Shown here: positions 1 through 26,886 of the stretch, piece after piece | Layout of the letters: every line of letters starts with the position of its first letter | Position numbering within the stretch: position 1 is the first letter of the stretch | NCBI GenBank assembly: GCA_003152195.1 | Contig: PLZN01000357.1 | Coordinates: 37,457-87,112 of the forward strand | Direction of reading: 5' to 3' | DNA from: Acidobacteriaceae bacterium | GTDB lineage: Bacteria > Acidobacteriota > Terriglobia > Terriglobales > Acidobacteriaceae | Length of the DNA stretch: 49,656 bases | Translations under genes and position numbers: made by a program | Notes under the pieces: model-generated | Told to the model about the DNA's origin: nothing | Seen by the model: the letters and a program-made list of their open reading frames with translations, nothing else | The model's database searches: none

Positions 1-212
1 ACTCGAACCCGAAGATCGTGGTGAACGGATCAGGCACGCCGACCATGCAGCTCGGGCCCACGAACATCTCGACGGGCACGGGCGCGCCGACATCGACCTG
101 TGGTACGGCACCGATCGGCAGCGGATCGCTGTGGCTAAGGACGGATGGCGGGGCGAGCACCTCTCTCTACTCCTGCGCGGGCACGACGTGGACGGCGGTG
201 ACCATCCCATGA
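1..212 (+). CDS. C-terminal end of an upstream protein (fibre-like / beta-rich), partial
   Basis: Frame 3 is open from the window edge with no stop before 210-212. It ends ...LWLRTDGGASTSLYSCAGTTWTAVTIP. Its stop overlaps the next start (ATGA at 209-212), so it is translationally coupled to the following genes. Confidence 0.4.
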   Translation, partial: SNPKIVVNGSGTPTMQLGPTNISTGTGAPTSTCGTAPIGSGSLWLRTDGGASTSLYSCAGTTWTAVTIP

Positions 213-823
213 GGACGCTCAAAGCCGCGATTCTCATACCGCTTCTCTTGGCGCTGCCGGCATACGCCGTCACCCTGACGAGCGCCTACGTGAGCAACCC
301 GGGGCCGGTGAGTGCCATGAACACCGGCGGCGCGCTCCAGGTCTATGCCTATTGCAAATACTCGGATGGCTCCACGACCAACTGCTCCACCACAGACATC
401 CATGGCAATAGGGTCACGGCCTGGACAAGCAGCAACTCCGCCGTGCTTACGGTTAACGGCTCGGGTCTCGCCAGCGGCATCAGCATCGGCAACGCCACCA
501 TCAATGCGACGATTACCGGAGGCGTCGTGGCCACCCCGCCGTTTGTGGTCACGGTTAGCGGGCCGAACACCCTGGGGCTCAGCTCACTGTCCCTGGCGAC
601 AACCGGTGGTGTTAGCTCGATACCCGCCGGGACGACCAACCAGCTCATCGCGACCTGCACGTACTCGGATGGCTCGACCACCAACTGCACCACAACCGAC
701 ATTCATGGGAGCGCGGTGAGTTCTTTTAGCAGCTCGGCGCCAACGGTGGCTACCGTGAGCTCGAGCGGCCTGGTCAGCGGCGTGGGCGCAGGGTCAACGA
801 CATTCAGGGCGACAATCCCATGA
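209..823 (+). CDS. Secreted protein: signal peptide plus two Big_2-type Ig-like domains
   Basis: The internal ATG at 209 gives MRTLKAAILIPLLLALPAYA|VTL, a classic signal peptide; the 131 start in the ORF track is unlikely. Two repeats carry the C-x-YSDGSTTNC-x-TTDIHG ... V-x-GxxxGxxTIxA pattern typical of bacterial Ig-like group 2 domains. ATGA overlaps occur at both ends. Confidence 0.7.
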   Translation: MRTLKAAILIPLLLALPAYAVTLTSAYVSNPGPVSAMNTGGALQVYAYCKYSDGSTTNCSTTDIHGNRVTAWTSSNSAVLTVNGSGLASGISIGNATINATITGGVVATPPFVVTVSGPNTLGLSSLSLATTGGVSSIPAGTTNQLIATCTYSDGSTTNCTTTDIHGSAVSSFSSSAPTVATVSSSGLVSGVGAGSTTFRATIP

Positions 824-2931
824 GGAACGTGAGCAGGATTATTGTTCTGCCGCTCTTTTGGTTCACGGCATTGGCGTATGGGCAGGTGACTGCCACTCCT
901 GTCTTCACGCTGCCGACCGGCACGTACACCATGCCGACGAGCAGCACAATCACGGATGCGACGGCGGGAGCCTCCATTCTCTGGTGCTTTACAGGGAGCG
1001 GCACATGCACCCCGGCCACAAGTTATACGGGCTCCATTTATATTGACCCCTCATCGGTGGATATCTTGTGCGCGAACGCGACTGCTTCCGGGTTCTCGCA
1101 GAGCCCGGCCACCTGCGCTACGTACACGGCGGCGAGCCCGACCGGGGCCGCTCCCCCGACCTTCTCGCCGGTTGCCGGCTCCTACTCGGGAACGAGGTCG
1201 GTCACGCTCTCCACCAGCACGGCGGGAGCGAATATCTATTACACGACGGACGGATCGACGCCGGATTACACCAGCACTCTTTACACCGGCCCGATCCTGG
1301 TCTCGGCAACGACCACGCTCCATGCGATTGCGGGAGTCATTGGTACGTGCACGGGCGGTACGGCCGGCGGGTCTCATGCTTGCCAATCGCTGAGTGAGCA
1401 GGTATCGCAGACCGGATGGAAAAAGGCTGACTGCCAGAGTCCGGGCAACTCAACATGCACCAGCGACAATCCGGGAGGTGCTGGGGTGCCTAAGGCAAAC
1501 TCCAGCCCCGGAGGCACCATTCTCCATTCGGGATGCTTGAGCAATGGCGGTGCGGGTCCATGCATGAATTTCACGCAGACGCCGCAAGCCAATCAACAAA
1601 CCAACGTCCTCTGGCCGCACAACGGCACGGGGGCTTGCGATAAATGCACATGGCTGGTGGAGAACGCAATGGTTCTGTACGGCCCCGACTCGGCAAACAC
1701 CTCGGCACACGAGAACGACCTATTTAACTTCGATTCGAGCGACGACATCAACTTCCAATTCGGGATGCAGTGCACGAAATGCACGAGCTCCTCTGCAGTG
1801 TGGGATATCGGCGGAACGACCAACGTGCCGTGGACGGCCACCGGCGTCACGCAGGAGTTTGCCGCGAACGAATGGCACCACATCATCAAAGAGGACCATT
1901 GGGTTACTTCGGAACTTACTTCGAAACCGTGCAGTGGTTTCCCTTGCCTTTATTGGACAAAACTTATTCTCGATGGTGTTCCCCATAACTTGCAGGCGGC
2001 GGGCGCTTGCGGTCAGACTTCGTCCTCGCCTTATAAAAACGGCTGCACCTTCAAGGCGGACACGCTGGAGACTGGCTTTGGTTCCCTGGTAGCCAATCAG
2101 TTCCAGATCGACGGAGGGCCCGTGAGCTCGCCGGTGTCACTCAACGATACTTTGGATGAGGCGACCTTCACGGCTTTCTACGATCCTTCCGCGGTGGCGA
2201 GCGCCGCCTACACGATCGGTAACCTTACGGCCAGCGTGCCCCTCACGGTGACGACAGCTACCCCTACACTGGTGAGCGCCTATCTCACTACGCCGGGCAG
2301 CGTAAACACCATGACGGCCGGCGGTACGCTGCAATTCTCGGCCTTCTGCCACTACTCGAGCGGGCCCGATCTGAACTGCACGATGGCCGACACTTACGGG
2401 GATGCGGTGACCGTGTGGTCGAGCTCGAACACCGCCCTGGCGACCATCGGCGCGGTGGGGTCGGCCAGCCCCGGCCTGGTGACAGCGGTGGCGGCCGGAG
2501 CGCTCACTATCCAGGCGACCATTGGCAGCGCGGTCACGCCGGCTTTTGGGCTGACTATCTCGAGCCCTACTGTAACTCTGGCGGGGTTGTATCTCGCGAC
2601 CACCGGCGGCGTAACCGGATTGTTTGTAGGCTCGACCACGAACCTTATCGCGACCTGTACTTACTCTGACGGATCGAACACAAACTGCACGTCTACCGAT
2701 AGCCATGGAAATGTGGCGTCTTCTTATGCCAGCTCGAGTACGGGCCACGCGACGGTCAACGCGACCACCGGCCTGGTTACAGGCGTCGCCGCCGGCACTA
2801 CCAACCTGACGGCCCACGCCGGCAGCTTTACCAGCCCTAACCTCGGCCTCATGGTCGTGGGCGTGCCTTCTGGGGTCTACTCGATCACGATTATCGGCCC
2901 AGTGCAATTTTCGGGGACGGTGAAGTTCTGA
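820..2931 (+). CDS. Secreted multidomain protein: signal peptide, CHB_HEX_C/Fn3-associated-like domain, Cys-rich central domain, two C-terminal Big_2 domains
   Basis: Signal peptide MRNVSRIIVLPLFWFTALAYG|QV. The segment PTFSPVAGSYSGTRSVTLSTSTAGANIYYTTDGSTPDYTSTLYTGPILVSATTTLHAIA matches the chitobiase/hexosaminidase C-terminal-like motif. The last ~200 aa are two Big_2 repeats paralogous to ORF 209-823. Confidence 0.75.
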   Translation: MRNVSRIIVLPLFWFTALAYGQVTATPVFTLPTGTYTMPTSSTITDATAGASILWCFTGSGTCTPATSYTGSIYIDPSSVDILCANATASGFSQSPATCATYTAASPTGAAPPTFSPVAGSYSGTRSVTLSTSTAGANIYYTTDGSTPDYTSTLYTGPILVSATTTLHAIAGVIGTCTGGTAGGSHACQSLSEQVSQTGWKKADCQSPGNSTCTSDNPGGAGVPKANSSPGGTILHSGCLSNGGAGPCMNFTQTPQANQQTNVLWPHNGTGACDKCTWLVENAMVLYGPDSANTSAHENDLFNFDSSDDINFQFGMQCTKCTSSSAVWDIGGTTNVPWTATGVTQEFAANEWHHIIKEDHWVTSELTSKPCSGFPCLYWTKLILDGVPHNLQAAGACGQTSSSPYKNGCTFKADTLETGFGSLVANQFQIDGGPVSSPVSLNDTLDEATFTAFYDPSAVASAAYTIGNLTASVPLTVTTATPTLVSAYLTTPGSVNTMTAGGTLQFSAFCHYSSGPDLNCTMADTYGDAVTVWSSSNTALATIGAVGSASPGLVTAVAAGALTIQATIGSAVTPAFGLTISSPTVTLAGLYLATTGGVTGLFVGSTTNLIATCTYSDGSNTNCTSTDSHGNVASSYASSSTGHATVNATTGLVTGVAAGTTNLTAHAGSFTSPNLGLMVVGVPSGVYSITIIGPVQFSGTVKF

Positions 2932-3302
2932 TGGCTACTTCTAAAGTGAAGCTGGTGACCGCGCGGACGATCGATACGCAAATCCTTGAGCAATTGGCGG
3001 AGGTGAAGTGCAAGGTGGACGAGAGCCTGGAACAGGGCCGCGAAAACGGCAACGAACTGAAGATGCTTCGCCGGGAGCTCGGGCTGGATGGGCAACATGG
3101 ACGCTTACCAATCGTGGAGGCGACGCTGATCCGCCACGAGGTGCGCATGGAAAAGGGCGAGGCGCGCATCGACAAGCTGGAAATCGGCAATAGCGAGGCG
3201 AACGGCAAGGCAAAGCTTGTCGCTACTTCCCTGGCGCTATTGGGGGGCGGAGCGGGCGGCGCACTGATTGCCCTGTTGGCCCACCTGCTTGGAGTGCATT
3301 AG
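2931..3302 (+). CDS. Coiled-coil protein with a single extreme C-terminal TM helix (tail-anchored); sits in the holin position
   Basis: 123 aa. The charged, heptad-like N-terminal ~95 aa are followed by LVATSLALLGGGAGGALIALLAHLLGVH at the C-terminus. The gene lies immediately upstream of the muramidase, and its start overlaps the previous stop by 1 nt. Confidence 0.5.
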   Translation: MATSKVKLVTARTIDTQILEQLAEVKCKVDESLEQGRENGNELKMLRRELGLDGQHGRLPIVEATLIRHEVRMEKGEARIDKLEIGNSEANGKAKLVATSLALLGGGAGGALIALLAHLLGVH

Positions 3303-3806
3303 ATGGCAAACGTGGAGGCGGCGATCGACTACGTGCTGAGCTGGGAAGACTCGACGCTCTCGGGCGTGATTACGACGGCTCCGGATGGCAAGCGGACCAG
3401 GTTCGGGATCGATGAGCACTGGCACCCGGAGCTGACCAATTGCCTCTATTTCAGCTCGATGGGCCAGGTGGCCGCGCTGCAGATTGCCAAAGGGATTTAC
3501 GATATCAGCTATTGCCAGCCGTTATGCATCGCGGAAATCGCAAGGCAGGAGATCGCCAACAAGCTGCTGTCGTTAGGGGTGAATGTGGGAGTGGTGAACG
3601 CAGCGAAGATGTTGCAGGATGCAGTGACTGTGGTGGGTGACGGCCGCATCGGGCCGCTGACGCTGCACGCGCTCGACCTGGCGGATCCACAGAAAGTGCT
3701 CGAGGATCTACGGGGAGAAGCGGAGAATTATTACGACGCGTTGACGGCAAAGAATCCGAACCTGGCCGTGTACCGGGCAGGCTGGCTACGGAGAGCTGCA
3801 GCGTGA
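3303..3806 (+). CDS. GH108-like N-acetylmuramidase with PG_binding_3-like C-terminal domain (COG3926 'secretion activator'/endolysin class)
   Basis: The N-terminus AIDYVLSWEDS...PDGKRTRFGI resembles the GH108 EGG...D.GG.T..GI block. The C-terminus DGRIGPLTLHALDL...YRAGWLRRAA resembles PG_binding_3. There is no signal peptide. Confidence 0.65.
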   Translation: MANVEAAIDYVLSWEDSTLSGVITTAPDGKRTRFGIDEHWHPELTNCLYFSSMGQVAALQIAKGIYDISYCQPLCIAEIARQEIANKLLSLGVNVGVVNAAKMLQDAVTVVGDGRIGPLTLHALDLADPQKVLEDLRGEAENYYDALTAKNPNLAVYRAGWLRRAAA

Positions 3807-6601
3807 GCGATCGCAACTACTGGTCTGCGTTAGACAGAGTAAGACGCGGTGGTGCGTGGGCGCTCTTCCTTCTGGCCGTCTTGACGTTGCCATTTTGCGG
3901 GCGCGTCCGGGCACAGAATATCGAAGGTCAAATCGTCGCCGCGCAGTTCGGCGAGTTCCAGGTGCCTGCGGTGGGCAACGGTTTCCAATTTCCGGCAGCG
4001 ACCTGCCAGGTGAGCGGAGGCGGCCGGAACTTCAATGCATTCGCTATGGGCGCTCCCATCAAGATCGTGGATAGCGATCCGAACCTGACCGAGATCGCAA
4101 ACCCAGCCGCAGTGTTTATCGACTCCTGCGCTGTTAGTCTGCCGACGGTACATAGCCATGAGTCGTTCTATCTTACGTCGGGAACCGGCGGCCTGCAGGA
4201 GGCGATTACTAACGGGATCAACCGCGGTGGCGGACCGAATACCATCATCCTGAATGCGGAATGGTACACGCTCGTCGCCCCATCGAGCCCGTCCGCGGTG
4301 ATCGCTTCGGTACACGGCAATACCGCTCTTGGCCTGGTGGACGTCATCACCACGCCATACACCTCTTATGCCTGGAACGGGACAAGTTATGCGGCCATTA
4401 GTGCTGGCGGTGGGGCGGCTACTCCGGCGACCACGGCGCTACTCAAAGGAAGTGGCAGCGCAAATGGAGTGGTGCCGGCCACGCCGGGCACGGACTTCAT
4501 CACTCCGAATCCAGGCGGTACGGGTCAGATCATCGCCGAGACCGGGGGCGCGGTCCTGGGGGTCACCAATCTGAACAATAACTTCTATGTTTCGGGTTTT
4601 CCCTTCAACGGCTGCACGGTCAACTCGATCACTTACACCACGCAGCTGGAGTGCGCCTGGTGGACGGCCAAAGCTTACGCCGAGGCCAACACTGCAATGG
4701 TCACGCTCTATATGGGGTACGGGTATTACAACATCAACGCCTCGCTGGTGCTGCCTACTCAGTCATTCACGAGCGTCAGCCTGATCGGCGCGGGCTACCA
4801 GGGATCGACGATCGTGGCCAACGCTACGATGGCCGACGCGATGATCTACAAGAACGAGACCGCTGGCGGCGGAACGCTGCCGAACGCCACTTTCCGCGAT
4901 TTCAAGATGATCGCGAATGACAAAGCGCAGGGCTGCTTGAGGCTCTGGGGGTTGCAGGAACCGGTGATCGAGAACGTGAATTGCGACAACGTTCCTAACG
5001 GCGCTCCGTTTCTCTACCAGTTTGGTGAGCCCAGCAATTATGGGCAAGGTTGGATTTTCCAGCTCATGGGGAAAAATATCATCGGCGGCAACTCAGTCAC
5101 CAACCCAGCCACCAAGGCCACGGTTACGGCCACCCTGAGCGGCGGCAGCACAGGCAACATCACTGGCTATGTGGTCGCGAACGGCGGTTCAGGGTACGGC
5201 ACGCCAAGCGCCGAGCAGGTGCTCTATGTAAACGTCCTGGGGAATCAAAACGGAACCAGCGATCAGCCCTGTGCGGTCATGCCGACCAACCTGGCCGCCA
5301 CCCAGAGCGGCGGAGTCATTCAGACAGTGACGGGGACCGGCGGTACGGGTTGCTCGGGAGTGATCACGGTGCAGGTTGTCCCAATATCCAACATCGCGGT
5401 GGGCATCGACGATTGGTCTTCGGACTCGACGCTGGACGATGCCGACGTGGGCTCGACGATCATCGGGGTCATTCAGCACAGCGGAGACACGACTTACAAG
5501 CACGCTCATCCCACGGGCACCAATATCGGCATGCAGAACGCCGGGGGCACGAACAACATCTACAAAGACACCGAGATCGATACGAACTACAAGTGGGGCT
5601 TCGATATGCAGGGCGGTGCGAATAGCTCGGAGATCGAAGGAACCCATGATTTCGGAGACGATCCGTCGGGGTTCAACATGTTCCACCTGTCGAGCACGGC
5701 CACGGTGCAGTTTGGGCCGCAGACTGATTTGTGCGTAGCCTCCCCCTCGCCGGTTGATTACCACGAATTTCTCATGCCCTATGGCACCTATGAAGTGGCG
5801 GGGTATCTGCCGGCGGGGTCGAGCATCGCGCCCAACGACTCCGTTTGCTCAAACCTGGGATCGATCTTCATGCAGCCGGTCACGATTGGTGGTCCTGGAC
5901 ATACCAGCCCGTTGCTGGTGAATGGCAACGCGGCCGTCACGGGCACTACAACGCTCGGACCTACATTTACCGGAGCATTGCAAACCAGTGGGACTCTCAA
6001 TGCTGGACCATCTGGAACGGCTACGGCCTTGGCGAACTTTGGTTCCAACGGTCTTGTCGCTTCCGATAGTTATTGGAATGGGTCCGCACCGACTAATACG
6101 ACTTTTGGTTGGAATGTCGCACCTGGTGGCGGGAGCAATCCATTCACGTATGCGTACCTCGGATTTGGTAACTGCCCCAGCGGCGGGTGCCAGCTTCAAA
6201 TTCAGCCTAACGTTTACTTCGACGGCACGGTGCAGTTTTCATCGCCCACCCAGTTTCCAGGGTCTACCGCAATTGACGCGAATGGCCTGGTCGGCGCACC
6301 GTCCTATGCAGTTACGGGCACAACCTTTACTACCAGTGGCTGCGGAACGGTGACTAACCGTCTCGGCGGCGCAACCGCTGGGTCGTTTCATTCGGGGACG
6401 AGCGGAACATGTACGGTCGTCGTGACCATGAGCGACTCGGTCACCGCAACTAACGGCTTCGCTTGTGGCCGGCCGAATGACCTGACCACTAATAGCGATT
6501 CGAGCAGTTGGAGTCAGACGGCTACCAGCACTACTACGGTCACCCTGTCAGGCACTTCGGTTGCCGGCGACGTCATTAACTTCGCCTGTACGCCGTACTA
6601 A
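3803..6601 (+). CDS. Large secreted beta-rich protein (tailspike/depolymerase-like), paralogue A
   Basis: GTG start overlapping the muramidase stop (GTGA). Signal peptide ...GAWALFLLAVLTLPFCGRVRA|QN. The N-terminal ~190 aa are paralogous to ORF 8469-11132. The remainder is Gly/Thr/Asn-rich and beta-type. The C-terminus is a Cys-containing ~100-aa module. Confidence 0.75.
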   Translation: MSDRNYWSALDRVRRGGAWALFLLAVLTLPFCGRVRAQNIEGQIVAAQFGEFQVPAVGNGFQFPAATCQVSGGGRNFNAFAMGAPIKIVDSDPNLTEIANPAAVFIDSCAVSLPTVHSHESFYLTSGTGGLQEAITNGINRGGGPNTIILNAEWYTLVAPSSPSAVIASVHGNTALGLVDVITTPYTSYAWNGTSYAAISAGGGAATPATTALLKGSGSANGVVPATPGTDFITPNPGGTGQIIAETGGAVLGVTNLNNNFYVSGFPFNGCTVNSITYTTQLECAWWTAKAYAEANTAMVTLYMGYGYYNINASLVLPTQSFTSVSLIGAGYQGSTIVANATMADAMIYKNETAGGGTLPNATFRDFKMIANDKAQGCLRLWGLQEPVIENVNCDNVPNGAPFLYQFGEPSNYGQGWIFQLMGKNIIGGNSVTNPATKATVTATLSGGSTGNITGYVVANGGSGYGTPSAEQVLYVNVLGNQNGTSDQPCAVMPTNLAATQSGGVIQTVTGTGGTGCSGVITVQVVPISNIAVGIDDWSSDSTLDDADVGSTIIGVIQHSGDTTYKHAHPTGTNIGMQNAGGTNNIYKDTEIDTNYKWGFDMQGGANSSEIEGTHDFGDDPSGFNMFHLSSTATVQFGPQTDLCVASPSPVDYHEFLMPYGTYEVAGYLPAGSSIAPNDSVCSNLGSIFMQPVTIGGPGHTSPLLVNGNAAVTGTTTLGPTFTGALQTSGTLNAGPSGTATALANFGSNGLVASDSYWNGSAPTNTTFGWNVAPGGGSNPFTYAYLGFGNCPSGGCQLQIQPNVYFDGTVQFSSPTQFPGSTAIDANGLVGAPSYAVTGTTFTTSGCGTVTNRLGGATAGSFHSGTSGTCTVVVTMSDSVTATNGFACGRPNDLTTNSDSSSWSQTATSTTTVTLSGTSVAGDVINFACTPY

Positions 6602-6620
6602 ACGAGAGGAGGAGGGTATT

Positions 6621-6851
6621 ATGAACAATCTCAAGGCATGGGTTCACGGCTTGGCTGCGGCTGCTATCTCAGCTTTTGCCTCGGCGGCTAGCGGCGCCAT
6701 CGCACTGCCTAGCGTGTTTACATTCGACAAGGTGGGGCTTTTCAATATGGTCAAGCTGGCTGCTGTGCCGGCGTTGCTGGCAGTATTTGCTTATCTGAAA
6801 AGTAGCCCGGTGCCGGCGTTGACCGATACGACGATGGTTAGGGGTCAATAA
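6621..6851 (+). CDS. Small two-TM membrane protein (class II holin-like)
   Basis: ATG at 6621 is preceded by the strong SD gaggaggagg. It encodes 76 aa with two hydrophobic helices (GLAAAAISAFASAASGAIAL and MVKLAAVPALLAVFAYL) and a short polar tail. Confidence 0.5.
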   Translation: MNNLKAWVHGLAAAAISAFASAASGAIALPSVFTFDKVGLFNMVKLAAVPALLAVFAYLKSSPVPALTDTTMVRGQ

Positions 6852-6915
6852 AGAGTGGCGCTTCCGTACTGAAAGCTTCGAAAATTGATCTAAGTCTTTC
6901 CACGCGGGTGTGAGA

Positions 6916-7155
6916 TTCCCATATCTCGCTGGTTTTTGGCGAAATGTGAGCTCCCACGACCGCCATTTTACAACCTCCAACGACCCACATTAAGGTCTGC
7001 GTCTCCCACATCTCGCCAAAAACGGGCGAGATACCCGGATTTCCTGTACGCGGCGCCACCCATGGTCGCTTATGCGGCTTTCTCTAAGGAAAGCCGCAAA
7101 AAGTTGGGTGCATCCCACGAAGCACCACAGGAAATCCGGGTGTATGGGACACCCT
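6916..7155. repeat. Composite palindromic repeat cluster: two REP-like hairpins in opposite orientation plus a ~107-nt structured element
   Basis: Hairpins at 6916-6950 (cccatatctcgc/gcgaaatgtgag) and 7003-7036 (cccacatctcgcc/ggcgagataccc). A long-range inverted repeat, cccggatttcctgt (7034-7047) with acaggaaatccggg (7127-7140), encloses the hairpin tgcggctttc-tctaa-ggaaagccgca (7073-7098). Confidence 0.75.
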
Positions 7156-7229
7156 TTGAGCCGCGGCAGGACGAGGGCCTCGGGTTCGATTTCTTTCTCT
7201 AGAACACACAACACATAAAGGAGAGTCCC

Positions 7230-7577
7230 ATGGCATTTACCTGGCAGTCGGCCGGGCACGCATTCGCGTCCCTGCTTAAAGATGTAGTCACTGTTTCAAA
7301 GAAGGTGGTCACGGTCCTGGGTGGTCTGCAGAATGAAGAACAGCTTATTGAGTCGCTGACTTCGCTGGTGAGCCCGCAGGCTGCGGCGGTGGAACAGATT
7401 GCTTTTGGCGCGCTGGGCGAGTTGGTTGCGGCCGTGCAAGCGACCGAGACGGCGGCAGGCGCCAACGGCGTCAATGTCGCCTTCGATGCTTCCGTCGTGG
7501 CCGAAGTGAAGAAGCTGGTCGCCGAGTTTCCTGAGGTTCTCGCCCAGGTCGAGGCGGCGTTCGGCAAAACCAAGTAA
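7230..7577 (+). CDS. Hypothetical phage protein
   Basis: ATG preceded by aaggagag. 115 aa, Ala/Val-rich and helical. No recognisable domain. Confidence 0.55.
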   Translation: MAFTWQSAGHAFASLLKDVVTVSKKVVTVLGGLQNEEQLIESLTSLVSPQAAAVEQIAFGALGELVAAVQATETAAGANGVNVAFDASVVAEVKKLVAEFPEVLAQVEAAFGKTK

Positions 7578-7608
7578 CTCATTCCAAATCCTAAATGGGG
7601 TGTACCCA

Positions 7609-7947
7609 ATGGCCCTCCGGCTCTCGTGCCTGATCCACGGCGTGATGCTGCTGCTTGTCTCAGGATGCTCCACGCATCGCCCCGTCGCGGCGCCCGTCCT
7701 CCCCGATGCTGGGGTTTCAGACGACAAAGAGTTTGTCTGGGCGGTCGCAGACAAGATGCCGATGTGGGATGCCGACGCTATCTCGAGGTACGAACAGAGG
7801 GAAATCGCCACGGTCAAGGCCGACATCGCGATGGCGGAGCAGGACGACGGGAAAAGCGTGTTCCTGGCCGACGTCACCAAGCTACATGACGATTGGGATG
7901 CGCTGGTCGCACTCGACGACATGCTAAAGAAGGAGTCGCTCCTATGA
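7609..7947 (+). CDS. Lipoprotein (lipobox LVSGC) with acidic coiled C-terminal part
   Basis: MALRLSCLIHGVMLLLVSG|CSTHRP fits a signal peptidase II lipobox. The ATG at 7609 is preferred over the GTG at 7600. Confidence 0.55.
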   Translation: MALRLSCLIHGVMLLLVSGCSTHRPVAAPVLPDAGVSDDKEFVWAVADKMPMWDADAISRYEQREIATVKADIAMAEQDDGKSVFLADVTKLHDDWDALVALDDMLKKESLL

Positions 7948-8087
7948 GCAGCAAACACTGGATCGAACGGGCGATCACGAAACCCGGAGCGTTCAAGACG
8001 CCGGCCCAACCAGCCGGCGAGAGCAAGACGGGCAAGCGAGCGAGACTGGCCGAGCTGCTGATGAAGATACGGAAAGAGAAAGGCTAA
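7944..8087 (+). CDS. Small basic hypothetical protein (47 aa)
   Basis: ATGA overlap with the previous stop, SD aaggag at 7929-7934, product MSSKHWIERAITKPGAFK... Confidence 0.4.
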   Translation: MSSKHWIERAITKPGAFKTPAQPAGESKTGKRARLAELLMKIRKEKG

Positions 8088-8089
8088 CC

Positions 8090-8455
8090 ATGGCCCACAC
8101 ACGATCGATTACGCTCAACGGCAGCGCCGGCGCGTTTGTCGCCGTCTCCGCAACCCAAGTGACGCGACGGGTCGAGGTCATCGAAGACGGCAGCGCGAAT
8201 GGCGGGACCGGCCAGGGCATCGCGTACCAGTTCAACGATGGCTCAGCCACGCCGTTCACCACTACCTACACCATTGAGCCACAGTCCGAGCCGATCGTGC
8301 TCGGCACGCCGGTTCCTCAAGGCGGAGGATATGGGATGGTGCTCGGCACACCGCCAGATAACTCGGGAGGGTATACGATCGCAGCGACGCTGCTTATCAA
8401 CCTAAGGTCGGCAAGCACGAACACAACCATCGTCCGCGTGACGGAATTTGACTAG
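8090..8455 (+). CDS. Hypothetical phage protein (beta-rich, 121 aa)
   Basis: ATG lies 2 nt after the previous stop, and coding-type composition runs throughout. No recognisable domain. Confidence 0.55.
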   Translation: MAHTRSITLNGSAGAFVAVSATQVTRRVEVIEDGSANGGTGQGIAYQFNDGSATPFTTTYTIEPQSEPIVLGTPVPQGGGYGMVLGTPPDNSGGYTIAATLLINLRSASTNTTIVRVTEFD

Positions 8456-8468
8456 GCAGTCACGACTT

Positions 8469-11132
8469 ATGAAGAAAATACTGTTGGTGGTTCTCGCCCT
8501 CGTATCCTGCTTCCCCCGCGTACGGGCGCAGAACGTTGAAGGCCAGATCATCGCCGCACAGTACGGCGAATTCAAGGTGCCGGGCACGACGATGGGCGGA
8601 TTTGTTTTCCTGCCTGCGACCTGCCAGGTCTCCGGCGGTGGCAAGAACTTCTCCGCGTTCGCAACCGGGGTGCCGGTCAAGATTGTTGACGGCAACCCGA
8701 GCCTCAGCGAAATTGCCACGCCGAGCTCGGTGTACATCAACGTCTGCTCAGTCAACATGGCGACGGCGAATGTCCACGAACCGCCTTACTACCTCACTTC
8801 GGGGACAGGTGGGCTACAGGAGGCGATTACCGCCAACCAGACCAGCGGGATTAACTCGATCGTCCTCAACTGGGAGTGGTACGAGGAGGTGCTGCCAGGC
8901 AGCGCGGCGAATGTCATTGCGTCCGTGCATGGCATCGCTTCGCTGGGGTTGGTGGATGTGACCACCACGCCATACACCTATTACACCTGGACCGGGTCGC
9001 AGTATACGGTGAACAATCCGACGGCCGGCAGCGTTAGCTACAACCAGGGTGGGACCGGCGCCGTGACGCGCAGCAGCACTGCGAAGTGGCAAGACTCGAT
9101 ATCGATCAAAGACTTTGGGGCGTTGGGCAATGGCTCGTCCATAGCGGCCGACACAGCGGGTTTGCAGAGTGCTGTGGCTGCGGCCAATATCCAAGGTAAA
9201 GCAGTCTACGTCCCGGCCGGCAATTACCTGCTCAACAACAGCGGCGGCCCGGTGATCTCCGGCGCGAACAACATAGTCATTTGGGGCGACGGACCATCGT
9301 CTTCCCTTGCCTGCCAAACCACCGGAGGGCCGGACTGCATCGCGTCGACGGGCGCTACCGGCTTTGGACTGCAGAATCTTTCGATTGCCTTTGGACCGAC
9401 AGCTACGGAACGATCCAGCGGCTACGCAGTGGACATCGAGACGTGCAACACTTGTACGCTCGAGGGAGTGACGCTGAACAATGGCGACCTGAGCGGCCTC
9501 AGACTGGCGAGCTCGGTGCATACCTCGATCCACAACCTGCAAGTGTCGAACTTCTTCGCCAACGGCACCTTCCTGGTGAACGACCAGGATTTGCGCGTGG
9601 ACGGCCTGGCCTGCGCAAACAATGAGGACGCGTGCCTGGAAACTTCATGGTACGACTCGGAGTATACGGCGCACGCGGTTCCCTGCCAGGACGTCACGGC
9701 GACCAACATCACCAGCACGAATGATCTTGAGGCGGTACTGGTCAATTCCTGCAATAACGTCACCGTGACGGGTTTCTCGGCGGTGGGGAGTGCCAAGGAA
9801 GCCGTCTTTGTCGGTCAGGATCCCACCACGACCACCGCACACTGGCCAGACCGGGTGAGCATCTCCAACGGATCCATCTACGGGTCTGGTTACGGCAGCA
9901 ATCCGCTCAACTCCGCGGCCGCGCAGGCACTGTACATCAACGTCGGCACCAGCCCGGGGAGCTTCATCTCGCACCTCAACTTTTCTAACATCGTAGCCAC
10001 GCACATCAGCTCGTGGGGCTTGCAGATGGCGGAGCTACAAAACGACGATGTGCAGGCAAGCAACCTGACCTTTTATGACATTGGCAATGGGAACTCGGCG
10101 GGCTGCGTGCAGACAGAAGGTAACCAGGTCAACCTGGACAATATCGCCTGCTCCAACATCGGCACCTACGCCTTTTATGACGCCAATACCAACCGGCTCA
10201 CGGGCACGGGCTGGACGGCGAGCGGCTCCAACCAGGTGGGCACGGGGACCGAGGCAGTCTTTCTTTCACCCACCGCGGTCGGGTTTGTCAACGTCAACGG
10301 CATCTCGCTGAACGACACCAACGGCAGCGTTTTTTCGAGCGCCGTCTACGATGACACGACCACGGGCGATCACATCCTGGTCAACATCAAGAGCTCCGGC
10401 ATCGTCGCCCCCACTGGGCCAACCAGCGCAAACCAGGGCACGACGTATACCTACGCCGATCCAACCCACTCCTGGATCTTTCGGAATGGGGGGATGATTA
10501 TGTCCTTCCTGCCGCCCGACGTGTACCTGTTGCCCACCGCCGGCGCGACCTCGGGGGCCTATGTCAACGGATCTACCTTCTGGTGGCAGAGCAAGTGCTG
10601 GACAACTTCGCAGCAAACCGAGAGCGTTGCGTGGCTCGACCTCTATCCCACAATGAGCACCGAGTCTTTCGCGTTCGCGCACACCGGGGGCTGCGGGTTT
10701 CCTATCACGCTCGATGTGACTGCAGCGGCTTCGATGCTGGGGAATATCTTTACTGGCACGATCATCAGCGGCCAGCATTTCAGCGGGCTGGCCAGCTCGG
10801 CACCAACGGCGGTAGCGGGGGCCGGCGCCGGTACAGGTCCCACAATTTCGCTCAACGCGAACTCGAATGACCTGTCCGGTTATCTGAGCGTCACTACCGG
10901 ATCTTCGCCGACGGCAAGCGCCATCGTCGCAACGCTCACCTATGGCACGGCGTACGCGACGCTGCCCAAGTGCTTGCTCGCGCCGGCAAACGCAGCCGCC
11001 TCCGCGCTTAGCGGCGCTGCCAACGTTTATATTCCGCTGACTTCCTCTGAGTCGGCCTTCACGGTTAACGCAAACACGACCGCTCTTGCCGCGTCGACGC
11101 TTTATACCTGGGGGTACACATGCACGCAGTAA
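8469..11132 (+). CDS. Secreted right-handed beta-helix protein (pectate-lyase-3/tailspike-type depolymerase), paralogue B
   Basis: The ATG at 8469 gives MKKILLVVLALVSCFPRVRA|QN; the TTG at 8448 is less likely. SIKDFGALGNGSSIAADTAGLQSAVAAANIQGKAVYVPAGNYLL is the typical N-terminal cap of Pectate_lyase_3/tailspike beta-helices. It is followed by periodic N/G/V-rich beta-helix turns. Confidence 0.8.
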   Translation: MKKILLVVLALVSCFPRVRAQNVEGQIIAAQYGEFKVPGTTMGGFVFLPATCQVSGGGKNFSAFATGVPVKIVDGNPSLSEIATPSSVYINVCSVNMATANVHEPPYYLTSGTGGLQEAITANQTSGINSIVLNWEWYEEVLPGSAANVIASVHGIASLGLVDVTTTPYTYYTWTGSQYTVNNPTAGSVSYNQGGTGAVTRSSTAKWQDSISIKDFGALGNGSSIAADTAGLQSAVAAANIQGKAVYVPAGNYLLNNSGGPVISGANNIVIWGDGPSSSLACQTTGGPDCIASTGATGFGLQNLSIAFGPTATERSSGYAVDIETCNTCTLEGVTLNNGDLSGLRLASSVHTSIHNLQVSNFFANGTFLVNDQDLRVDGLACANNEDACLETSWYDSEYTAHAVPCQDVTATNITSTNDLEAVLVNSCNNVTVTGFSAVGSAKEAVFVGQDPTTTTAHWPDRVSISNGSIYGSGYGSNPLNSAAAQALYINVGTSPGSFISHLNFSNIVATHISSWGLQMAELQNDDVQASNLTFYDIGNGNSAGCVQTEGNQVNLDNIACSNIGTYAFYDANTNRLTGTGWTASGSNQVGTGTEAVFLSPTAVGFVNVNGISLNDTNGSVFSSAVYDDTTTGDHILVNIKSSGIVAPTGPTSANQGTTYTYADPTHSWIFRNGGMIMSFLPPDVYLLPTAGATSGAYVNGSTFWWQSKCWTTSQQTESVAWLDLYPTMSTESFAFAHTGGCGFPITLDVTAAASMLGNIFTGTIISGQHFSGLASSAPTAVAGAGAGTGPTISLNANSNDLSGYLSVTTGSSPTASAIVATLTYGTAYATLPKCLLAPANAAASALSGAANVYIPLTSSESAFTVNANTTALAASTLYTWGYTCTQ

Positions 11133-11593
11133 GGCGCTGCTTTCCATACGCGGTTCTGCTCTTCCTGGTGGCCTGCATCGCCAGGGCGCAGCAGACAGGG
11201 CGCAATGGTGTTCCGGGGACGTCGTCGGTCCATGTTGGCGTTCGTGCTGCCGCTATCCCAACCATTGCGGCCGGCGTGGGAGCCGGCAGCGCACCCGGCG
11301 CGGTCACTATCGCCGCCGGTTCCACCGATCTTTCCGGGACAATCACTATCGGGACCGGGACGTCACCGACGGCGTTCGGCATCGTCGCGACGATCACGTT
11401 CAATGTGGCTTATACGGGCACTGTTCCGCATTGCGTTCTTTATCCGGTTACTACCAATGCTGCACAGCTAGGGGCTGGGCCGGTGTTTCTGCCGCTGAGC
11501 GGCATCACGCTCGCGGGATTCAATATAAATTCCACCACGCCCGCTTTGGCCGCTTCGACGACTTACTCGTGGGAATACATCTGCACACAGTAG
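11120..11593 (+). CDS. Small secreted protein: signal peptide plus a stand-alone copy of the C-terminal module of ORF 8469-11132
   Basis: Signal peptide MHAVRRCFPYAVLLFLVACIARA|QQ. Residues ~60-157 align with the last ~100 aa of the preceding protein: both contain DLSG-x-[IL]-x-[IV]-x-TG-x-SPTA...IVAT[IL]T[FY]...P-x-C and both end in C-T-Q. Confidence 0.65.
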   Translation: MHAVRRCFPYAVLLFLVACIARAQQTGRNGVPGTSSVHVGVRAAAIPTIAAGVGAGSAPGAVTIAAGSTDLSGTITIGTGTSPTAFGIVATITFNVAYTGTVPHCVLYPVTTNAAQLGAGPVFLPLSGITLAGFNINSTTPALAASTTYSWEYICTQ

Positions 11594-11627
11594 TTGGGGA
11601 ACAAAGCGGCGATGAGAGAGCCGCGTA

Positions 11628-11660
11628 TCCCACCCTTCGCAAACAGCGCGAAGGATGGGG
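11628..11660. repeat. REP-like hairpin
   Basis: tcccacccttcgc-aaacagc-gcgaaggatgggg followed by cacccgtt. Same family as the elements at 7003, 14692 and 14788. Confidence 0.7.
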
Positions 11661-11698
11661 CACCCGTTGGCTTGCGGAGGGGACAGGGTGAACGGACG

Positions 11699-12112
11699 AT
11701 GAGGATGCCCTGGATATCCCGCTCTTCCCACGAGGAGATGATGGGCCTGATGACTACGCAGGTGGACGAGTTGACCCACGAGCGGAGGCTCCTGCTCGAT
11801 CGCCTGGCTACGCTTGGACTGGGTGGACCTCTCTTCAACTCGCCTTCCTGGACCGATTCCTCAGAAAAGACGGCGGAGGAGACAGAGCCAATTGACCCGG
11901 AAGCGGATGAGATAGAGAAGTTGATGCAGCTTCGCCGCCGTCCTTCGAAACTGGCCGATGCGCTCACCCGTAAGGCTTATCGGGATTACAACCGGGCGCA
12001 GGCTGGGCCCAGCGTCAAGTGGATACCCAAGGTGGAAGCGCAGGCTTCCAAGCTTGACACCATGACCGCGGCGCTCGACGAAGCGGAAGCGTTCGGAAAG
12101 AAACAGGCGTAA
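11699..12112 (+). CDS. Hypothetical protein immediately upstream of the portal gene
   Basis: The ATG at 11699 lies downstream of the repeat; the longer 11594 start would translate through the REP hairpin. 137 aa, charged and helical. The stop abuts the portal ATG. Confidence 0.5.
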   Translation: MRMPWISRSSHEEMMGLMTTQVDELTHERRLLLDRLATLGLGGPLFNSPSWTDSSEKTAEETEPIDPEADEIEKLMQLRRRPSKLADALTRKAYRDYNRAQAGPSVKWIPKVEAQASKLDTMTAALDEAEAFGKKQA

Positions 12113-14635
12113 ATGGCCACATATCCCGGCGTTGCAATGACCGCGAGTTCCCAGACGCAAGTACCCCAAACCCAGCGAGGGATGGAGCATACGCCATCGG
12201 ACCCCATGCAGGGCAAGGCAGATGAGCCGCAGAATAGCGCGCAGCTTAGCGAAGAAGATCAGCAGCGGCTGATTGCCCTGGTGCGTAGTTATAAAGACCA
12301 GTGGTCGCAGGACCGCATGGTGCTGATGCAACGGTGCCTGGAAAATCTGGAGTTCTTCAAGGGCAATCAGTTCATCTCCTTCGGCCCCGGGGAGTCGGAG
12401 TTTTTTAACGCGGTCGACTGGATGAACCAGGGCGACCACGCGCAGGACTCCGACGATAAGGATCTCTATCAGTATTGCAACAACTTTTACCAGATGCTGG
12501 CGACCGGCTTTGTGGCGGCGCTGGCTCCGCAGGTTCCAAAATCCAAATGGATGCCGGAGGACGCTGAGCAGCTCTCCGATGTGACGACTGCCAAGGCGGC
12601 GCAGACACTGATCGGCATCATCGAGCAACAGAACCGGGAACAGTCGCTGCTCAAGCAACAGTTGCTGTATCTCTACACCACGGGGGCGGTCTTTCGGCAT
12701 ACCCGCTACGTCGTGGACGCGGAGCGCGCAGGCACCTCGCGGGAGCCGGTCTTCAACGAGACGGAGACACAGCTGGCGCCGGATCGCTACCACTGCTTCC
12801 ATTGCGGCGCGACTTCGCCGGCGGATGCGTTGCCTGTCGGTGGGCACCGTTGCCAGCAGTGCCAGCGGCCGCTGGGAGACGACTCGTTCTTCCCGGCTGA
12901 GTATGGGCCGGTGATTCAGAAAGTGGGCGAGGAGGAAGTGCCCAACGGCATGGTGGCGCAGAACCTCTATAGCCCGCTCGAGGTGGACTGCGACCCGGCG
13001 GCGAACAACCTGCGGCAGACGCCGATTCTCAACCTCGAGGTCGAGGTTCACGTGGGCGCGCTGCGGGCCGCGTATCCCGGCATGTACGACCAGATCGCGG
13101 CGAGCGCGACGAGTGAGCTCTCGGCCAACGGAAGCATCGACCGTATCGCCAGGCAGCAGGTGTATTCGCAGACGGGGGCGTCCTCGAGCATCCTGCAGGA
13201 CCAGCGGCCAACATTGTCGCGGACGTGGATTCAGCCGTGGGCCTTTGATCTGGAAGATGACCGGGATTTCGGCGAGCGGATGCGGGCGACTTATCCCAAC
13301 GGCCTGCTGCTGGTGAATACCGGCGCTACCTTTCTTTCCGCACGCGAAGCCTCACTGACCAAGGAGTGGACGTGGGCGGGCACGCATGAGGGATTCGGCA
13401 TGTATCCGCCGGCGATCGGCGACATTGTTGTGCCTTTTCAAAAGCGCTACAACGATATGGCCAACATCCTGCACGAGTTCATGGACCGCTGCTCGTCGGG
13501 AGTGACGCTGGCCAATGCGGACCTGATCGACACCAAGTCGATGCAGGGCAAGCCGATGCTGCCCGGGGTTCTGAACCTGGTGAAGCTGAAGCGGACAGGG
13601 GCCCCGGGCGCGGTGCGCATGGCCGATGCGCTCTACCAGTTCCAGTTCCAGATGCATGAAGAAGCCTTCAGCTACCTGGATAAGCTGGCCTACAACGCGC
13701 AGATGTTTGCCGGCATTCCTCCGCAGGTGTATGGCGGCGCGGGCGACCCGTCGGTCGAGACCTTTGGCGGGCAGCAGCAGCAATTGAATTCGGCGCTGGG
13801 CAAGCTGAACATTTATTGGGAGAACCTGAAAGAGGAGCACGCGAAGGCTGATGAGCTGGCGGTGAATTGCGCCAAGGACAATCTGACCGCTGATATGAGG
13901 CAGGTCCTTGTGGAGCGAGGCTCGGAGTTTCGCAATGATTACATCCGGCTCGACGATTTGCAGGGCAGCGTGCATGCGTATGCCGATACCGACCAGGGGC
14001 TTCCGGTTACCGCGGCGGAGCTACGGCAGCGGTGGATGGATTTGATGCAGGCGGCGGCGAGCAATCCTCTGGCGCAGGCGATCTTCGACGATCCAACGAA
14101 CCAGGAGCAGGCGGCCACGGCGTTGGGGGTTCCGAATATGGTGGTTCCGGGCGCGGCGATGCGTTCGAAGGTGTTGCAGATTATCGAGCGGCTGTTGGAG
14201 GCGGAGGCGGTGCCCGTGGTTGACCCGCGCACGGGACGGCCGACCGGGCAGGTGAGGCCGACGATTCTTCCGGATAAGGCTATCGACGACTTCACGGTGC
14301 TGAAGCAGGTTGTGCGGCAGTATTGCCAGGAGAATTCAGATATTCCCGATGATAACCCCGCGGGGTGGCAGAATCTGCTGGCGTACTTCACGGCTGCGGT
14401 TGCCCTCGAGACTCAGCAGATGGCGGAGATGGCACAGCAGAAGGCAGTGGTGGCGCAGGCGGGTTCGTTGAAGCAGGCGAGGCCGCAGGAGATCCCTCCC
14501 CATGAGATCGATGATGTGGTGAACACGATGGGAGGGCTGATGCATCTTTCACCTGAGGCAACCTCGGAGAATATTCAGGGCCAGGTGCAGGCAGCGAACG
14601 CGCTGATTAAATTGGCGGATAAGCTGTCGGGTTAG
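12113..14635 (+). CDS. Portal-like protein (unusually large, 840 aa)
   Basis: It sits upstream of the scaffold-like and capsid-like genes. The N-terminal block ...RCLENLEFFKGNQF... resembles the conserved portal motif (r..n..fy.G.Q), and the C-terminus is long and helical. The call rests on position and motif, not on a search. Confidence 0.65.
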   Translation: MATYPGVAMTASSQTQVPQTQRGMEHTPSDPMQGKADEPQNSAQLSEEDQQRLIALVRSYKDQWSQDRMVLMQRCLENLEFFKGNQFISFGPGESEFFNAVDWMNQGDHAQDSDDKDLYQYCNNFYQMLATGFVAALAPQVPKSKWMPEDAEQLSDVTTAKAAQTLIGIIEQQNREQSLLKQQLLYLYTTGAVFRHTRYVVDAERAGTSREPVFNETETQLAPDRYHCFHCGATSPADALPVGGHRCQQCQRPLGDDSFFPAEYGPVIQKVGEEEVPNGMVAQNLYSPLEVDCDPAANNLRQTPILNLEVEVHVGALRAAYPGMYDQIAASATSELSANGSIDRIARQQVYSQTGASSSILQDQRPTLSRTWIQPWAFDLEDDRDFGERMRATYPNGLLLVNTGATFLSAREASLTKEWTWAGTHEGFGMYPPAIGDIVVPFQKRYNDMANILHEFMDRCSSGVTLANADLIDTKSMQGKPMLPGVLNLVKLKRTGAPGAVRMADALYQFQFQMHEEAFSYLDKLAYNAQMFAGIPPQVYGGAGDPSVETFGGQQQQLNSALGKLNIYWENLKEEHAKADELAVNCAKDNLTADMRQVLVERGSEFRNDYIRLDDLQGSVHAYADTDQGLPVTAAELRQRWMDLMQAAASNPLAQAIFDDPTNQEQAATALGVPNMVVPGAAMRSKVLQIIERLLEAEAVPVVDPRTGRPTGQVRPTILPDKAIDDFTVLKQVVRQYCQENSDIPDDNPAGWQNLLAYFTAAVALETQQMAEMAQQKAVVAQAGSLKQARPQEIPPHEIDDVVNTMGGLMHLSPEATSENIQGQVQAANALIKLADKLSG

Positions 14636-14691
14636 TGGGCAAGCAGCGGTTACACCCTCTCGTATAAAGCAACGGAAACCATCCGAATTTA

Positions 14692-14821
14692 TCCCACGTA
14701 CGCTGAGGCGAACGTGGGGCACCCGTTCTATTTTAACTAAATTAGTTTGCCGTAGCGGCGGACAGCTGCGGGTTGAACGCGACGTTTCCCACATCTCGCA
14801 AACAACGAGCGAGATATGGGG
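14692..14821. repeat. Two REP-like hairpins between the portal and scaffold genes
   Basis: 14692-14719 is tcccacgtacgc-tgag-gcgaacgtgggg(cacccgtt). 14788-14821 is cccacatctcgc-aaacaacga-gcgagatatgggg(cacccc). Confidence 0.75.
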
Positions 14822-14875
14822 CACCCCATGATTCGCTGGCAGGATAGCCTAGACCATCAGAAAGCAGATCCAACC

Positions 14876-16387: not shown

Positions 16388-16436
16388 GGGATCAGCATTC
16401 GCGCGGCGTCCACGCCGCAGATAAGGAATCAATTTC

Positions 16437-17720: not shown

Positions 17721-17743
17721 CCAGAAAGTAAGTGCACTTAGGG

Positions 17744-17779
17744 AAGGGCTGAGATCAATTTCTCAGCCCTTTGTTTTTG
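17744..17779 (+). terminator. Rho-independent terminator after the capsid gene
   Basis: aagggctgaga-tcaatt-tctcagccctt followed by tgtttttgg. Confidence 0.75.
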
Positions 17780-17839
17780 GTCTTAATACCTTGACGTTGG
17801 GATTTGTGGAACCGATGGTTCCGCTTATGGACAGAATGC

Positions 17840-19335: not shown

Positions 19336-19386
19336 GGCGGGGATGACAATTCTTTACTTAACCAAGACACTCAAGGAGCTTGATCG

Positions 19387-21020: not shown

Positions 21021-21048
21021 TTATTCCATTTCTTACTAAGGAGAAACC

Positions 21049-21414
21049 ATGGCAGTTTCAGGAGCAATCATCGATTACACAGGTGCGGCGGGAGAGCGTA
21101 ACTTTACCGTCTTCATCCAGCTTACCTTTAGCGGTAGTTTCACCACCGGCGGAGATCCGCTCAACTTAGCGACACTGACCAATCCGAACGGCCTCGATGT
21201 CGAGGGCGTCTTCGAGCTTCCGCTGTCCTTGGGCCCGTCGGTTTATCTGGAGGATATCGGCGGGTATTATGTGCAGCCGAAGGTTTCGGGCTCGACCGTG
21301 AATGCATTCCTTATTAACGTGTATGCACCGGGCGGATCGATCGTCTCCGGAGCGTACAACACGGCTGTCACAAGCGGCAACGTGATTCTCACCATGCAGA
21401 AGCGGCGCGTCTAA
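21049..21414 (+). CDS. Small hypothetical virion protein
   Basis: SD aaggagaaacc precedes the ATG. 121 aa, beta-rich. Confidence 0.55.
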   Translation: MAVSGAIIDYTGAAGERNFTVFIQLTFSGSFTTGGDPLNLATLTNPNGLDVEGVFELPLSLGPSVYLEDIGGYYVQPKVSGSTVNAFLINVYAPGGSIVSGAYNTAVTSGNVILTMQKRRV

Positions 21415-21499
21415 GAGCTGAAACCGCAGGTCCTTCCACTACGATTCGCTCCGGCCGGGATGACAAATTGGTGTGCGCATTTGAGCGACAGGACACTCG

Positions 21500-26884: not shown

Positions 26885-26886
26885 CG

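Follow-up and report, generated by a model that had tools for sequence, protein, structure and literature searches.

Large spike-like proteins with predicted Sec signal peptides in the host-recognition and lysis region of an Acidobacteriaceae prophage

We analysed a 49,656-nucleotide stretch of the genome of an Acidobacteriaceae bacterium (contig PLZN01000357.1 of assembly GCA_003152195.1, positions 37,457 to 87,112; hereafter the window), the first 11,593 bases of which carry genes for large spike-like proteins with predicted Sec signal peptides, interleaved with phage lysis genes. The window from position 1 to ~31-33 kb is a Caudoviricetes prophage, a single row of phage genes that are all co-oriented (+ strand) and whose left end is cut by the window edge; GC content is ~0.6 over the whole length. 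Host genes (SRAP, SDR, ROK, MscS and DUF255) were found from ~35.8 kb onward, and homologues came nearly all from Acidobacteriaceae genomes and soil metagenomes. The phage row, the ordinary bacterial genes beyond it and the Acidobacteriaceae homologues together place the signal-bearing block within the prophage. Bases 1-11593 are where an integrated tailed phage of Acidobacteriaceae keeps its late genes for host recognition and lysis, and the modular receptor-binding layout in this phage late region agrees with a first-pass annotation of the same DNA, which had described a tail-fibre-type module. To our knowledge, every tailed phage characterised so far makes its receptor-binding proteins in the cytoplasm and without a signal peptide.

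Signal peptides were called by in-house n-h-c/AxA scoring of 42 open reading frames (ORFs), a simple rule set that looks for a positive n-region, a hydrophobic, uncharged h-region 7-16 residues long and small amino acids at -3 and -1, supplemented by conservation across the family. The five ORFs starting at 209, 820, 3803, 8469 and 11120, to which the first-pass annotation had assigned signal peptides, lay and began as it described and gave the top heuristic scores in the window (5.6-6.4), each with a net n-region charge of +2 and an AxA-type site; a predicted lipoprotein (7600) and a protein with two transmembrane (TM) segments (6621) scored below all five. Four of the earlier cleavage sites were recovered, and in ORF 820 the heuristic preferred QVTA|T to the site first proposed. 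Across the ~19 ORFs in 11594-31201 the same score never exceeded 2.6, and all five signals would fall within this 11-ORF block with P = 0.003 if they were distributed at random over 30 ORFs. The five proteins are, as far as their sequences tell, very probably exported and disulfide-bonded. The n-region of ORF 3803 is unusually long (17 residues); a search for an alternative start that would shorten it turned up no start codon from 3803 to the h-region.

Two of the five are large proteins with a common N-terminal domain. RBP1 (3803-6601, +; 932 aa, GTG start, signal score 5.85, ...GRVRA|QN) and RBP2 (8469-11132, +; 887 aa, signal score 6.4) were 61% identical over ~160 aa from exactly the predicted cleavage site and had nothing in common beyond it, so that the conservation of post-cleavage residues noticed earlier in these paralogues extends over a whole domain. 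This N-domain (~165 aa, right after the signal) was joined to very different C-termini, in proteins of 400-2196 aa. In RBP2 it precedes a pectate-lyase-like right-handed beta-helix (PF12708, 1.3e-11) and a C-terminal domain of ~100 aa. Residues 186-400 of RBP2, at the start of the beta-helix, matched genes annotated as tailspikes or tail fibres in isolated phages (E 2e-9 to 3e-4), among them phages of Salmonella, Escherichia, Vibrio, Curvibacter and others, and it was only through this part that RBP2 matched isolated phages at all. RBP1 has a rare C-terminal module, with 12 homologues of its last 733 aa; RBP1 had no Pfam, PHROG, NCBIfam or PDB match, and a profile built from RBP1 homologues also returned nothing from PDB. 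It sits in a variable slot after the muramidase gene, which in relatives is filled by proteins of 250-1500 aa, many with signals and some Laminin_G_3-like.

A third paralogue is cut by the window edge. The first-pass annotation had let the block begin at base 1, but the frame at 1-212 (+), open from base 3, is the C-terminal end of a giant protein: the product of bases 3-212 shared 82-92% identity with the C-termini of proteins 1611-1688 aa long in the related loci L013, L015, L019 and L020, the N-termini of which match the N-domain and, where intact, start MKKLLAVLTVLVCCANVQA|QNIEGQIIASQYG. The giant paralogue (~1580-1690 aa) has the same signal peptide and N-domain in relatives, making it a third signal-bearing paralogue, of ~1600 aa, whose end lies in the window. 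Up to three N-domain paralogues were thus found per prophage, namely the ~1600-aa giant, the occupant of the variable slot and the ~890-aa protein. From their sequences, the large proteins look like receptor-binding proteins or depolymerases in construction, with exchangeable beta-helix, lectin or Ig-type C-termini. Such genes are currently labelled as bacterial pectate lyases or GH28-related, and a spike-like family that is exported as a rule would mislead automatic annotation in this way.

The signal peptide was a trait of the whole family. RBP2 had ~200 homologues, nearly all of which opened with a signal. Among ~120 homologues of RBP2, essentially every full-length protein started with MKK, a hydrophobic stretch and xQA|QN(VE)GQIIAAQYGEF, and the hydrophobic stretch drifted in both sequence and length. 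In 70 RBP2 orthologues, identity was 0.59 in the signal, 0.39 in the c-region and 0.77 in the next 40 residues, and in an alignment of diverse members Gln21, the predicted +1 residue, was the first invariant position. When a profile made from the N-terminal 210 residues was run against 1.84 billion representatives, it returned 645 clusters (448 at E <= 1e-10); in the best 150 of the 645, the N-domain was always at the extreme N-terminus and a signal-like start was present in every sequence except N-terminal fragments. The predicted signal is, by these alignments, conserved in form and not in sequence. A conserved n-h-c form, a drifting h-region and a fixed +1 Gln argue for a cleaved signal as opposed to a structural element.

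Cysteine content pointed in the same direction. Mature cysteine counts were 4, 22, 16, 16 and 2 for ORFs 209, 820, 3803, 8469 and 11120, all of them even, and the residues were mostly in closely spaced pairs, so the paired cysteines of the first-pass annotation were confirmed. All 16 cysteines of RBP2 were invariant in 70 orthologues averaging ~66% identity. Invariant, paired cysteines in proteins with a signal fit oxidative folding outside the cytoplasm, and we would expect disulfides to form in the exported proteins.

The three remaining signal-bearing ORFs lack the N-domain. The 204-aa protein (209-823, +; signal score 5.7, ...LALPAYA|V) has two Big_2 Ig-like domains (1.8e-08, two stretches), with its four mature cysteines in two close pairs. 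The 703-aa protein (820-2931, +; signal score 5.6) combines a carbohydrate-binding-type CHB_HEX_C/Fn3_assoc domain (CHB_HEX_C_1, 2.6e-17; Fn3_assoc, 2.2e-14) with two Big_2-like repeats (4.7e-08) and a cysteine-rich centre (22 mature cysteines, close pairs); its orthologues in relatives likewise began with signals. The 204-aa protein shared 49% identity with the C-terminal end of the 703-aa protein, and the ATGA junctions at 200-215 and 811-826 had identical local sequence (TCCCATGAGGA), which together suggests tandem duplication of a Big_2 cassette. The 157-aa protein (11120-11593, +) consists of a signal and a C-terminal domain of ~100 aa with two cysteines, and was 44% identical to the RBP2 C-terminus. 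Both ends of this ORF match 801-aa proteins that are intact in L005 (10785-13190) and L040 (10778-13183), so 11120-11593 is, judged by these matches, an internally deleted remnant of an 801-aa signal-bearing type; a tail-fibre assembly chaperone with its own signal was ruled out for this ORF, given the fused ends. After the signal, the 801-aa type starts differently (QTVGGNGVPG...), which points to a second class of exported spike-like proteins in the lineage. Upstream of the giant, relatives encode a further, conserved ~500-aa protein (L035:44-1534, L032:129-1619, L041:113-1591) with the signal-like start MSKVKALLILIMSTATAYG|GTITG… and no Pfam match, so the exported set is larger than the window shows.

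Synteny with the block was found in 39 genomic loci and 15 IMG/VR contigs. In relatives its first half runs from the ~500-aa signal protein through the giant, the Big_2/CHB signal protein or proteins, a tail-anchored protein and the muramidase to the variable slot; in the second half follow the 2-TM protein, the small proteins x115, lipoprotein and x121, the ~890-aa protein, a small protein and the portal-like gene. In the 39 syntenic prophages and in more distant relatives, the lysis block always lay within a complete virion and packaging set. In more distant relatives, too, N-domain genes kept phage company. In L057, an N-domain protein lies between a capsid-like gene (78% identical to that of the window) and the adaptor gene; this 1222-aa protein (L057:10001-13669), with signal and N-domain, occupies the slot taken in the window by 17804-18631. 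In L060 only a few genes separate an N-domain gene from x121 and the portal-like gene, and in L061 one adjoins terminase genes whose terminase is only 30% identical to that of the window. Among the contexts examined, we found no N-domain member outside a phage setting. A strictly N-terminal, lineage-restricted domain with exchanged C-termini and phage-only contexts looks like a virion anchor.

Lysis genes are threaded between the signal-bearing genes, with junctions of ATGA at 209 and 820, TGATG at 2931, TAG|ATG at 3303 and GTGA at 3803; the translational coupling proposed earlier was found as described, and such interleaved, coupled junctions point to co-expression of signal-bearing and lysis genes. 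Internal promoter-like signals were not in excess (2 sites against 3.9 expected, assuming a sigma-70-type promoter, which may not suit Acidobacteria), and neither were terminators. The muramidase (3303-3806, +; 167 aa) is GH108-like/PG_binding_3, a class assignment of the first-pass annotation that held in hidden Markov model searches: its C-terminal domain matched PG_binding_3 (PF09374, 4.8e-09, 36.7 bits against a cut-off of 24.6), GH108 (PF05838, 6.7e-04, 20.6 bits, match beginning at profile position 15) fell just under its cut-off of 21.2, and phrog_315 'endolysin' matched over the full length (1.1e-19). Weak PDB matches were to NMB1012, 'secretion activator' proteins and 6v3z. Residues E15 and D28-G-K-R-T-R-F-G-I36 were invariant in relatives, and E15 is the putative catalytic residue. 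Neither the heuristic nor hydropathy gave a signal or signal-anchor-release (SAR) segment in the muramidase; for an endolysin of this kind, established knowledge of holin-endolysin systems leads one to expect a hole-forming holin that mixes cytoplasm and periplasm. The muramidase looks like the ordinary endolysin of the phage, and not like an exporter of the type 10 secretion system (T10SS) kind.

Hydropathy and a lipobox supported the earlier description of the membrane proteins around it. The tail-anchored protein (2931-3302, +; 123 aa) has a charged helical N-terminal part and a single C-terminal TM segment at 96-122 (hydropathy), is kept directly 5' of the muramidase in relatives, and is a member of the lysis block and a candidate holin or holin regulator. 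The 2-TM protein (6621-6851, +; 76 aa, hydrophobic segments 11-29 and 37-59, 78-93% conserved in relatives) is by membrane topology a candidate holin. Next come x115 (7230-7577, +; 115 aa, no TM segment or signal, 81-95% identical in relatives) and a predicted 115-aa lipoprotein (7600-7947, +) with a lipobox, LVSG|C, conserved in relatives, which could be an outer-membrane spanin-type or exclusion-type protein. In Pfam, PHROG and NCBIfam searches the tail-anchored protein, the 2-TM protein, x115 and the lipoprotein had no family match. The last of the small genes, x121 (8090-8455, +; 121 aa), encodes a jelly-roll protein without signal or cysteine (AlphaFold2 model, pLDDT 91.5); it had 133 homologues, was ~85-94% identical in close relatives and 55% in distant L060, and was more conserved than its neighbours. 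Structure searches gave only generic jelly-roll/cupin matches (E >= 5.5e-03) and a sequence profile run against PDB gave nothing below E = 0.6. We regard x121 as a core gene of the lineage and, speculatively, as a virion partner. Between the 2-TM protein and x115 lies a non-coding insert of 378 bp (6852-7229, no strand assigned) with nested inverted repeats (6922-6948/7007-7033 and 7033-7047/7127-7141). The 12-mer GGAAATCCGGGT of this insert is found again in the intergenic DNA of the host, where it forms an inverted pair at 46040-46148 (5 matches against 0.21 expected), and the insert looks like a host repeat resembling a miniature inverted-repeat transposable element that landed in the prophage lysis block and is not part of the system.

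Downstream of the block, the virion and packaging genes (12113-31201, +) carry no signal peptides and are colinear with those of relatives. The phage is podovirus-like with an SU10-type adaptor: the gene at 20340-21020 (+) gave a weak SU10_adaptor match (1.9e-05, below cut-off), its homologue in L057 being listed without the weak mark. The large terminase (29615-31201, +) matched phrog_979 (2.9e-38). Portal-like (12113-14635, +) and capsid-like (16437-17720, +) are labels inferred from size and position alone, and a large, uncharacterised 987-aa tail protein is encoded at 21500-24463 (+). The portal-like protein had no match among isolated phages; the portal-like, capsid-like, RBP1 and RBP2 proteins, used as queries against PDB sequences, gave nothing useful, and no relevant NCBIfam match was obtained for ten proteins from the block and the head region. 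Several details of this region were noted in passing. The portal-like protein (840 aa) contains two CxxC pairs (228/231 and 247/250), and a 318-aa protein at 19387-20343 has a zinc-ribbon match and two further CxxC pairs; zinc-ribbon-type motifs are unusual in head- and connector-region proteins. The gene for a 275-aa protein with 12 cysteines and a weak GT2 match (17804-18631) has the capsid-like gene on one side and the connector genes on the other. At 11594-12112, the listed TTG start gives 172 aa; relatives have 112-133 aa and do not contain the first ~35 residues (…PPFANSAKDGAP…), and the real start is probably a downstream Met (MRMPW… or later). Just 5' of the terminase region, 27782-28876 encodes 364 aa with a weak RelA_SpoT nucleotidyltransferase match (1.2e-04, below cut-off) and may be a phage-borne small alarmone-synthetase-like protein.

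At the right end, the related contig L063 was colinear with the window into host DNA except at 31196-34958. Colinearity that reaches host DNA indicates the same insertion site in a close relative and does not decide whether the prophage is mobile. The segment in which the two differ, 31196-34958, contains a Fic/DOC gene (32036-33232) and, at 33900-34958 (-), a DnaB-like gene with the N-terminal domain and just the first 52 positions of the C-terminal helicase domain, which looks truncated near the prophage end.

We propose that the large proteins would be co-translated with the lysis genes late in infection, exported by Sec and cut after the AxA site, leaving an N-terminal Gln, and would then fold in the periplasm with disulfide bonds. 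Ordinary lysis would follow through the signal-less GH108-type endolysin and the interleaved membrane proteins (the tail-anchored protein, the 2-TM holin candidate and the lipoprotein). Once the holin opens the inner membrane, virions built in the cytoplasm would meet the periplasmic proteins, and the N-domain would dock these onto the tail, arming the virion outside the cytoplasm. Under export followed by docking, the mature N-terminus should be pyroGlu-QNVEGQIIAAQYGEFK. These steps differ in standing. The sequences themselves show the signal-peptide features and their conservation throughout the family, the invariant paired cysteines, a modular layout of receptor-binding type, a phage-only context, and the family and constant position of the endolysin. 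The predicted course up to lysis is well supported: late synthesis alongside the lysis genes, export through Sec, cleavage ahead of Gln21, oxidative folding, and release when the cell lyses. The N-domain as an attachment module is an inference, as are export with cleavage, the disulfides, the late timing and above all docking after the membrane breach. That the large proteins dock onto virions outside the cytoplasm after Sec export is a tentative reading. More tentatively still, it may extend to a widespread Acidobacteria phage lineage (at least 645 N-domain clusters) with Sec-exported spikes that form disulfides in the periplasm and are attached after the holin breach.

Several points weigh against docking. 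We found no literature precedent for exported tail fibres or tailspikes, and a paper on Acidobacteria phages of Tunturi makes no mention of signals or fibres; the absence of signal peptides has even been taken as a mark of phage origin for variable receptor-binding proteins (PMC6199706). Our signal prediction was our own heuristic instead of SignalP. When an AlphaFold2 model of the N-domain (pLDDT 76) was searched with Foldseek against PDB and BFVD, no match reached E <= 0.001; weak sub-threshold matches include several phage tail proteins and were not counted as support. With one N-domain common to three paralogues, either the tail would have to offer three docking sites or the paralogues would compete for a single site. 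Other proteins have a signal and no N-domain (the Big_2/CHB proteins, the small Laminin_G_3-like slot proteins in relatives and the ~500-aa upstream protein), so some at least of the signal-bearing proteins are probably free exported proteins. The uncharacterised 987-aa and 399-aa proteins of the tail region could be the true receptor binders.

The last two points lead to the alternative that survives best, in which the proteins are free, exported glycan-degrading or glycan-binding proteins outside the virion and another tail protein binds the receptor. A toolkit of depolymerase, lectin and Ig proteins, exported late in infection, would work on polysaccharide of the envelope or matrix, both from the periplasm and, once the cell has lysed, in its surroundings, clearing a path for progeny or destroying receptors on debris, with the N-domain serving in oligomerisation or cell-surface anchoring. 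Such proteins require no unprecedented assembly step. Signals and paired cysteines are typical of secreted enzymes, just as pectate-lyase-like, CHB_HEX_C, Big_2 and Laminin_G_3 domains are of secreted carbohydrate-active proteins; block proteins with a signal and no N-domain, and the presence of other uncharacterised tail proteins, fit as well, and ~5% of the carbohydrate-active enzymes of soil prophages carry signal peptides (PMC13507307). However, an N-terminal lineage-restricted domain with swapped C-termini is a hallmark of virion-attached receptor binders, and only phage contexts were found, in L057 even inside the capsid-connector gene row. The phage would also spend >15 kb of a genome of at least 45 kb on non-virion proteins, and proteins of 900-1700 aa would still require lysis to exit a diderm cell. 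We therefore consider free enzymes a serious alternative, though on balance a doubtful one.

A further possibility is that the hydrophobic N-terminus is unused, or only partly used, for export, so that attachment to the virion takes place in the cytoplasm, the segment has some other role and disulfides form after release. Assembly would then follow the classical route, disulfides are known to form after release in certain virion proteins of other phages, and the 17-residue n-region of RBP1 is unusually long. Against it stand the n-h-c pattern, the small-x-small site, the invariant +1 Gln and the free variation of the h-region across hundreds of clusters, as well as the even number of cysteines in all five mature proteins, which make this reading improbable.

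Least probable is the proposal of the first-pass annotation, a T10SS-like unit in which muramidase and holin open the peptidoglycan and Sec cargo leaves living or sacrificial lysogens irrespective of virion production. In its favour, the muramidase is in the same GH108/PG_binding_3 class as TtsA, has no signal and lies among membrane proteins, and adjacent, translationally coupled genes encode cargo that would be periplasmic, as typhoid toxin is. But the cassette was never found apart from portal-like, capsid-like and terminase genes (39 loci and distant relatives), belongs to one co-oriented late row with promoter-like sites not above expectation, includes a lipoprotein of possible spanin type and no dedicated regulator that we could see, and has an endolysin of a class common in phages (phrog_315). 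The simplest reading is that the muramidase keeps its original role in lysis, through which periplasmic proteins would be set free in any event. T10SSs have been described as phage-derived lysis modules repurposed from virion production, with their own regulators, often non-lytic and spanin-less, and TtsA has been placed in the N4 gp61 muramidase family (PMC13284979). Like the block, the known systems (TtsA with typhoid toxin; ChiWXYZ or ChiH/ChiP with chitinases; PMC13284979) have a muramidase of the N4 gp61/GH108 class that lacks a signal and depends on a holin, and typhoid toxin is moreover a periplasmic cargo that is exported by Sec and encoded close by; unlike them, the cassette here lies inside a complete, conserved prophage late region.

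Docking outside the cytoplasm, the reading that we tentatively prefer, can be set beside other phage and bacterial systems. Podovirus tailspikes and fibres (of the P22 gp9 type, and those of multi-spike phages such as K1-5, SP6 and CBA120) have the same plan of an N-terminal module and exchangeable beta-helix or lectin C-termini, with several paralogues per genome and genes in or near the virion module and lysis genes, and RBP2 weakly matches tailspikes. They are, however, signal-less and are folded and attached in the cytoplasm, whereas the proteins described here have a Sec-type signal and invariant cysteines family-wide, and an N-domain for which no fold match among known anchors was detected. 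Lambda Lom and Bor, T5 Llp and Cor are likewise products of genes with Sec or lipoprotein signals among tail-fibre genes, and the 115-aa lipoprotein at 7600-7947 may, by analogy, be of this kind; yet these are small outer-membrane proteins or lipoproteins for exclusion or host fitness, not beta-helix proteins of 900-1700 aa built like receptor binders. Sec-dependent and SAR endolysins are late phage proteins that use host Sec before lysis, but there the endolysin itself is exported, whereas here the spike-like proteins would be and the endolysin is signal-less. As a functional analogy without homology, the dockerin-cohesin pairs of cellulosomes join exported enzymes that share a docking module to a scaffold outside the cytoplasm; here a virion tail would be the hypothetical scaffold.

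Exported enzymes of phages are known already; the novelty lies in a coherent, large family that combines receptor-binding architecture with a universal signal. A spike-like phage family that is exported as a rule would break the criterion by which absence of a signal marks a variable lectin-type protein as phage-borne (PMC6199706), and the finding raises the question of where and when the virion gains its spikes. On either reading, disulfide-stabilised depolymerase-like proteins could be robust enzymes. If they are free enzymes, these phages encode a secretome of >15 kb directed against the polysaccharide matrix of abundant soil bacteria, which would bear on soil carbon turnover by prophage enzymes. 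Two-compartment assembly, if true, would be a pathway undescribed for any tailed phage.

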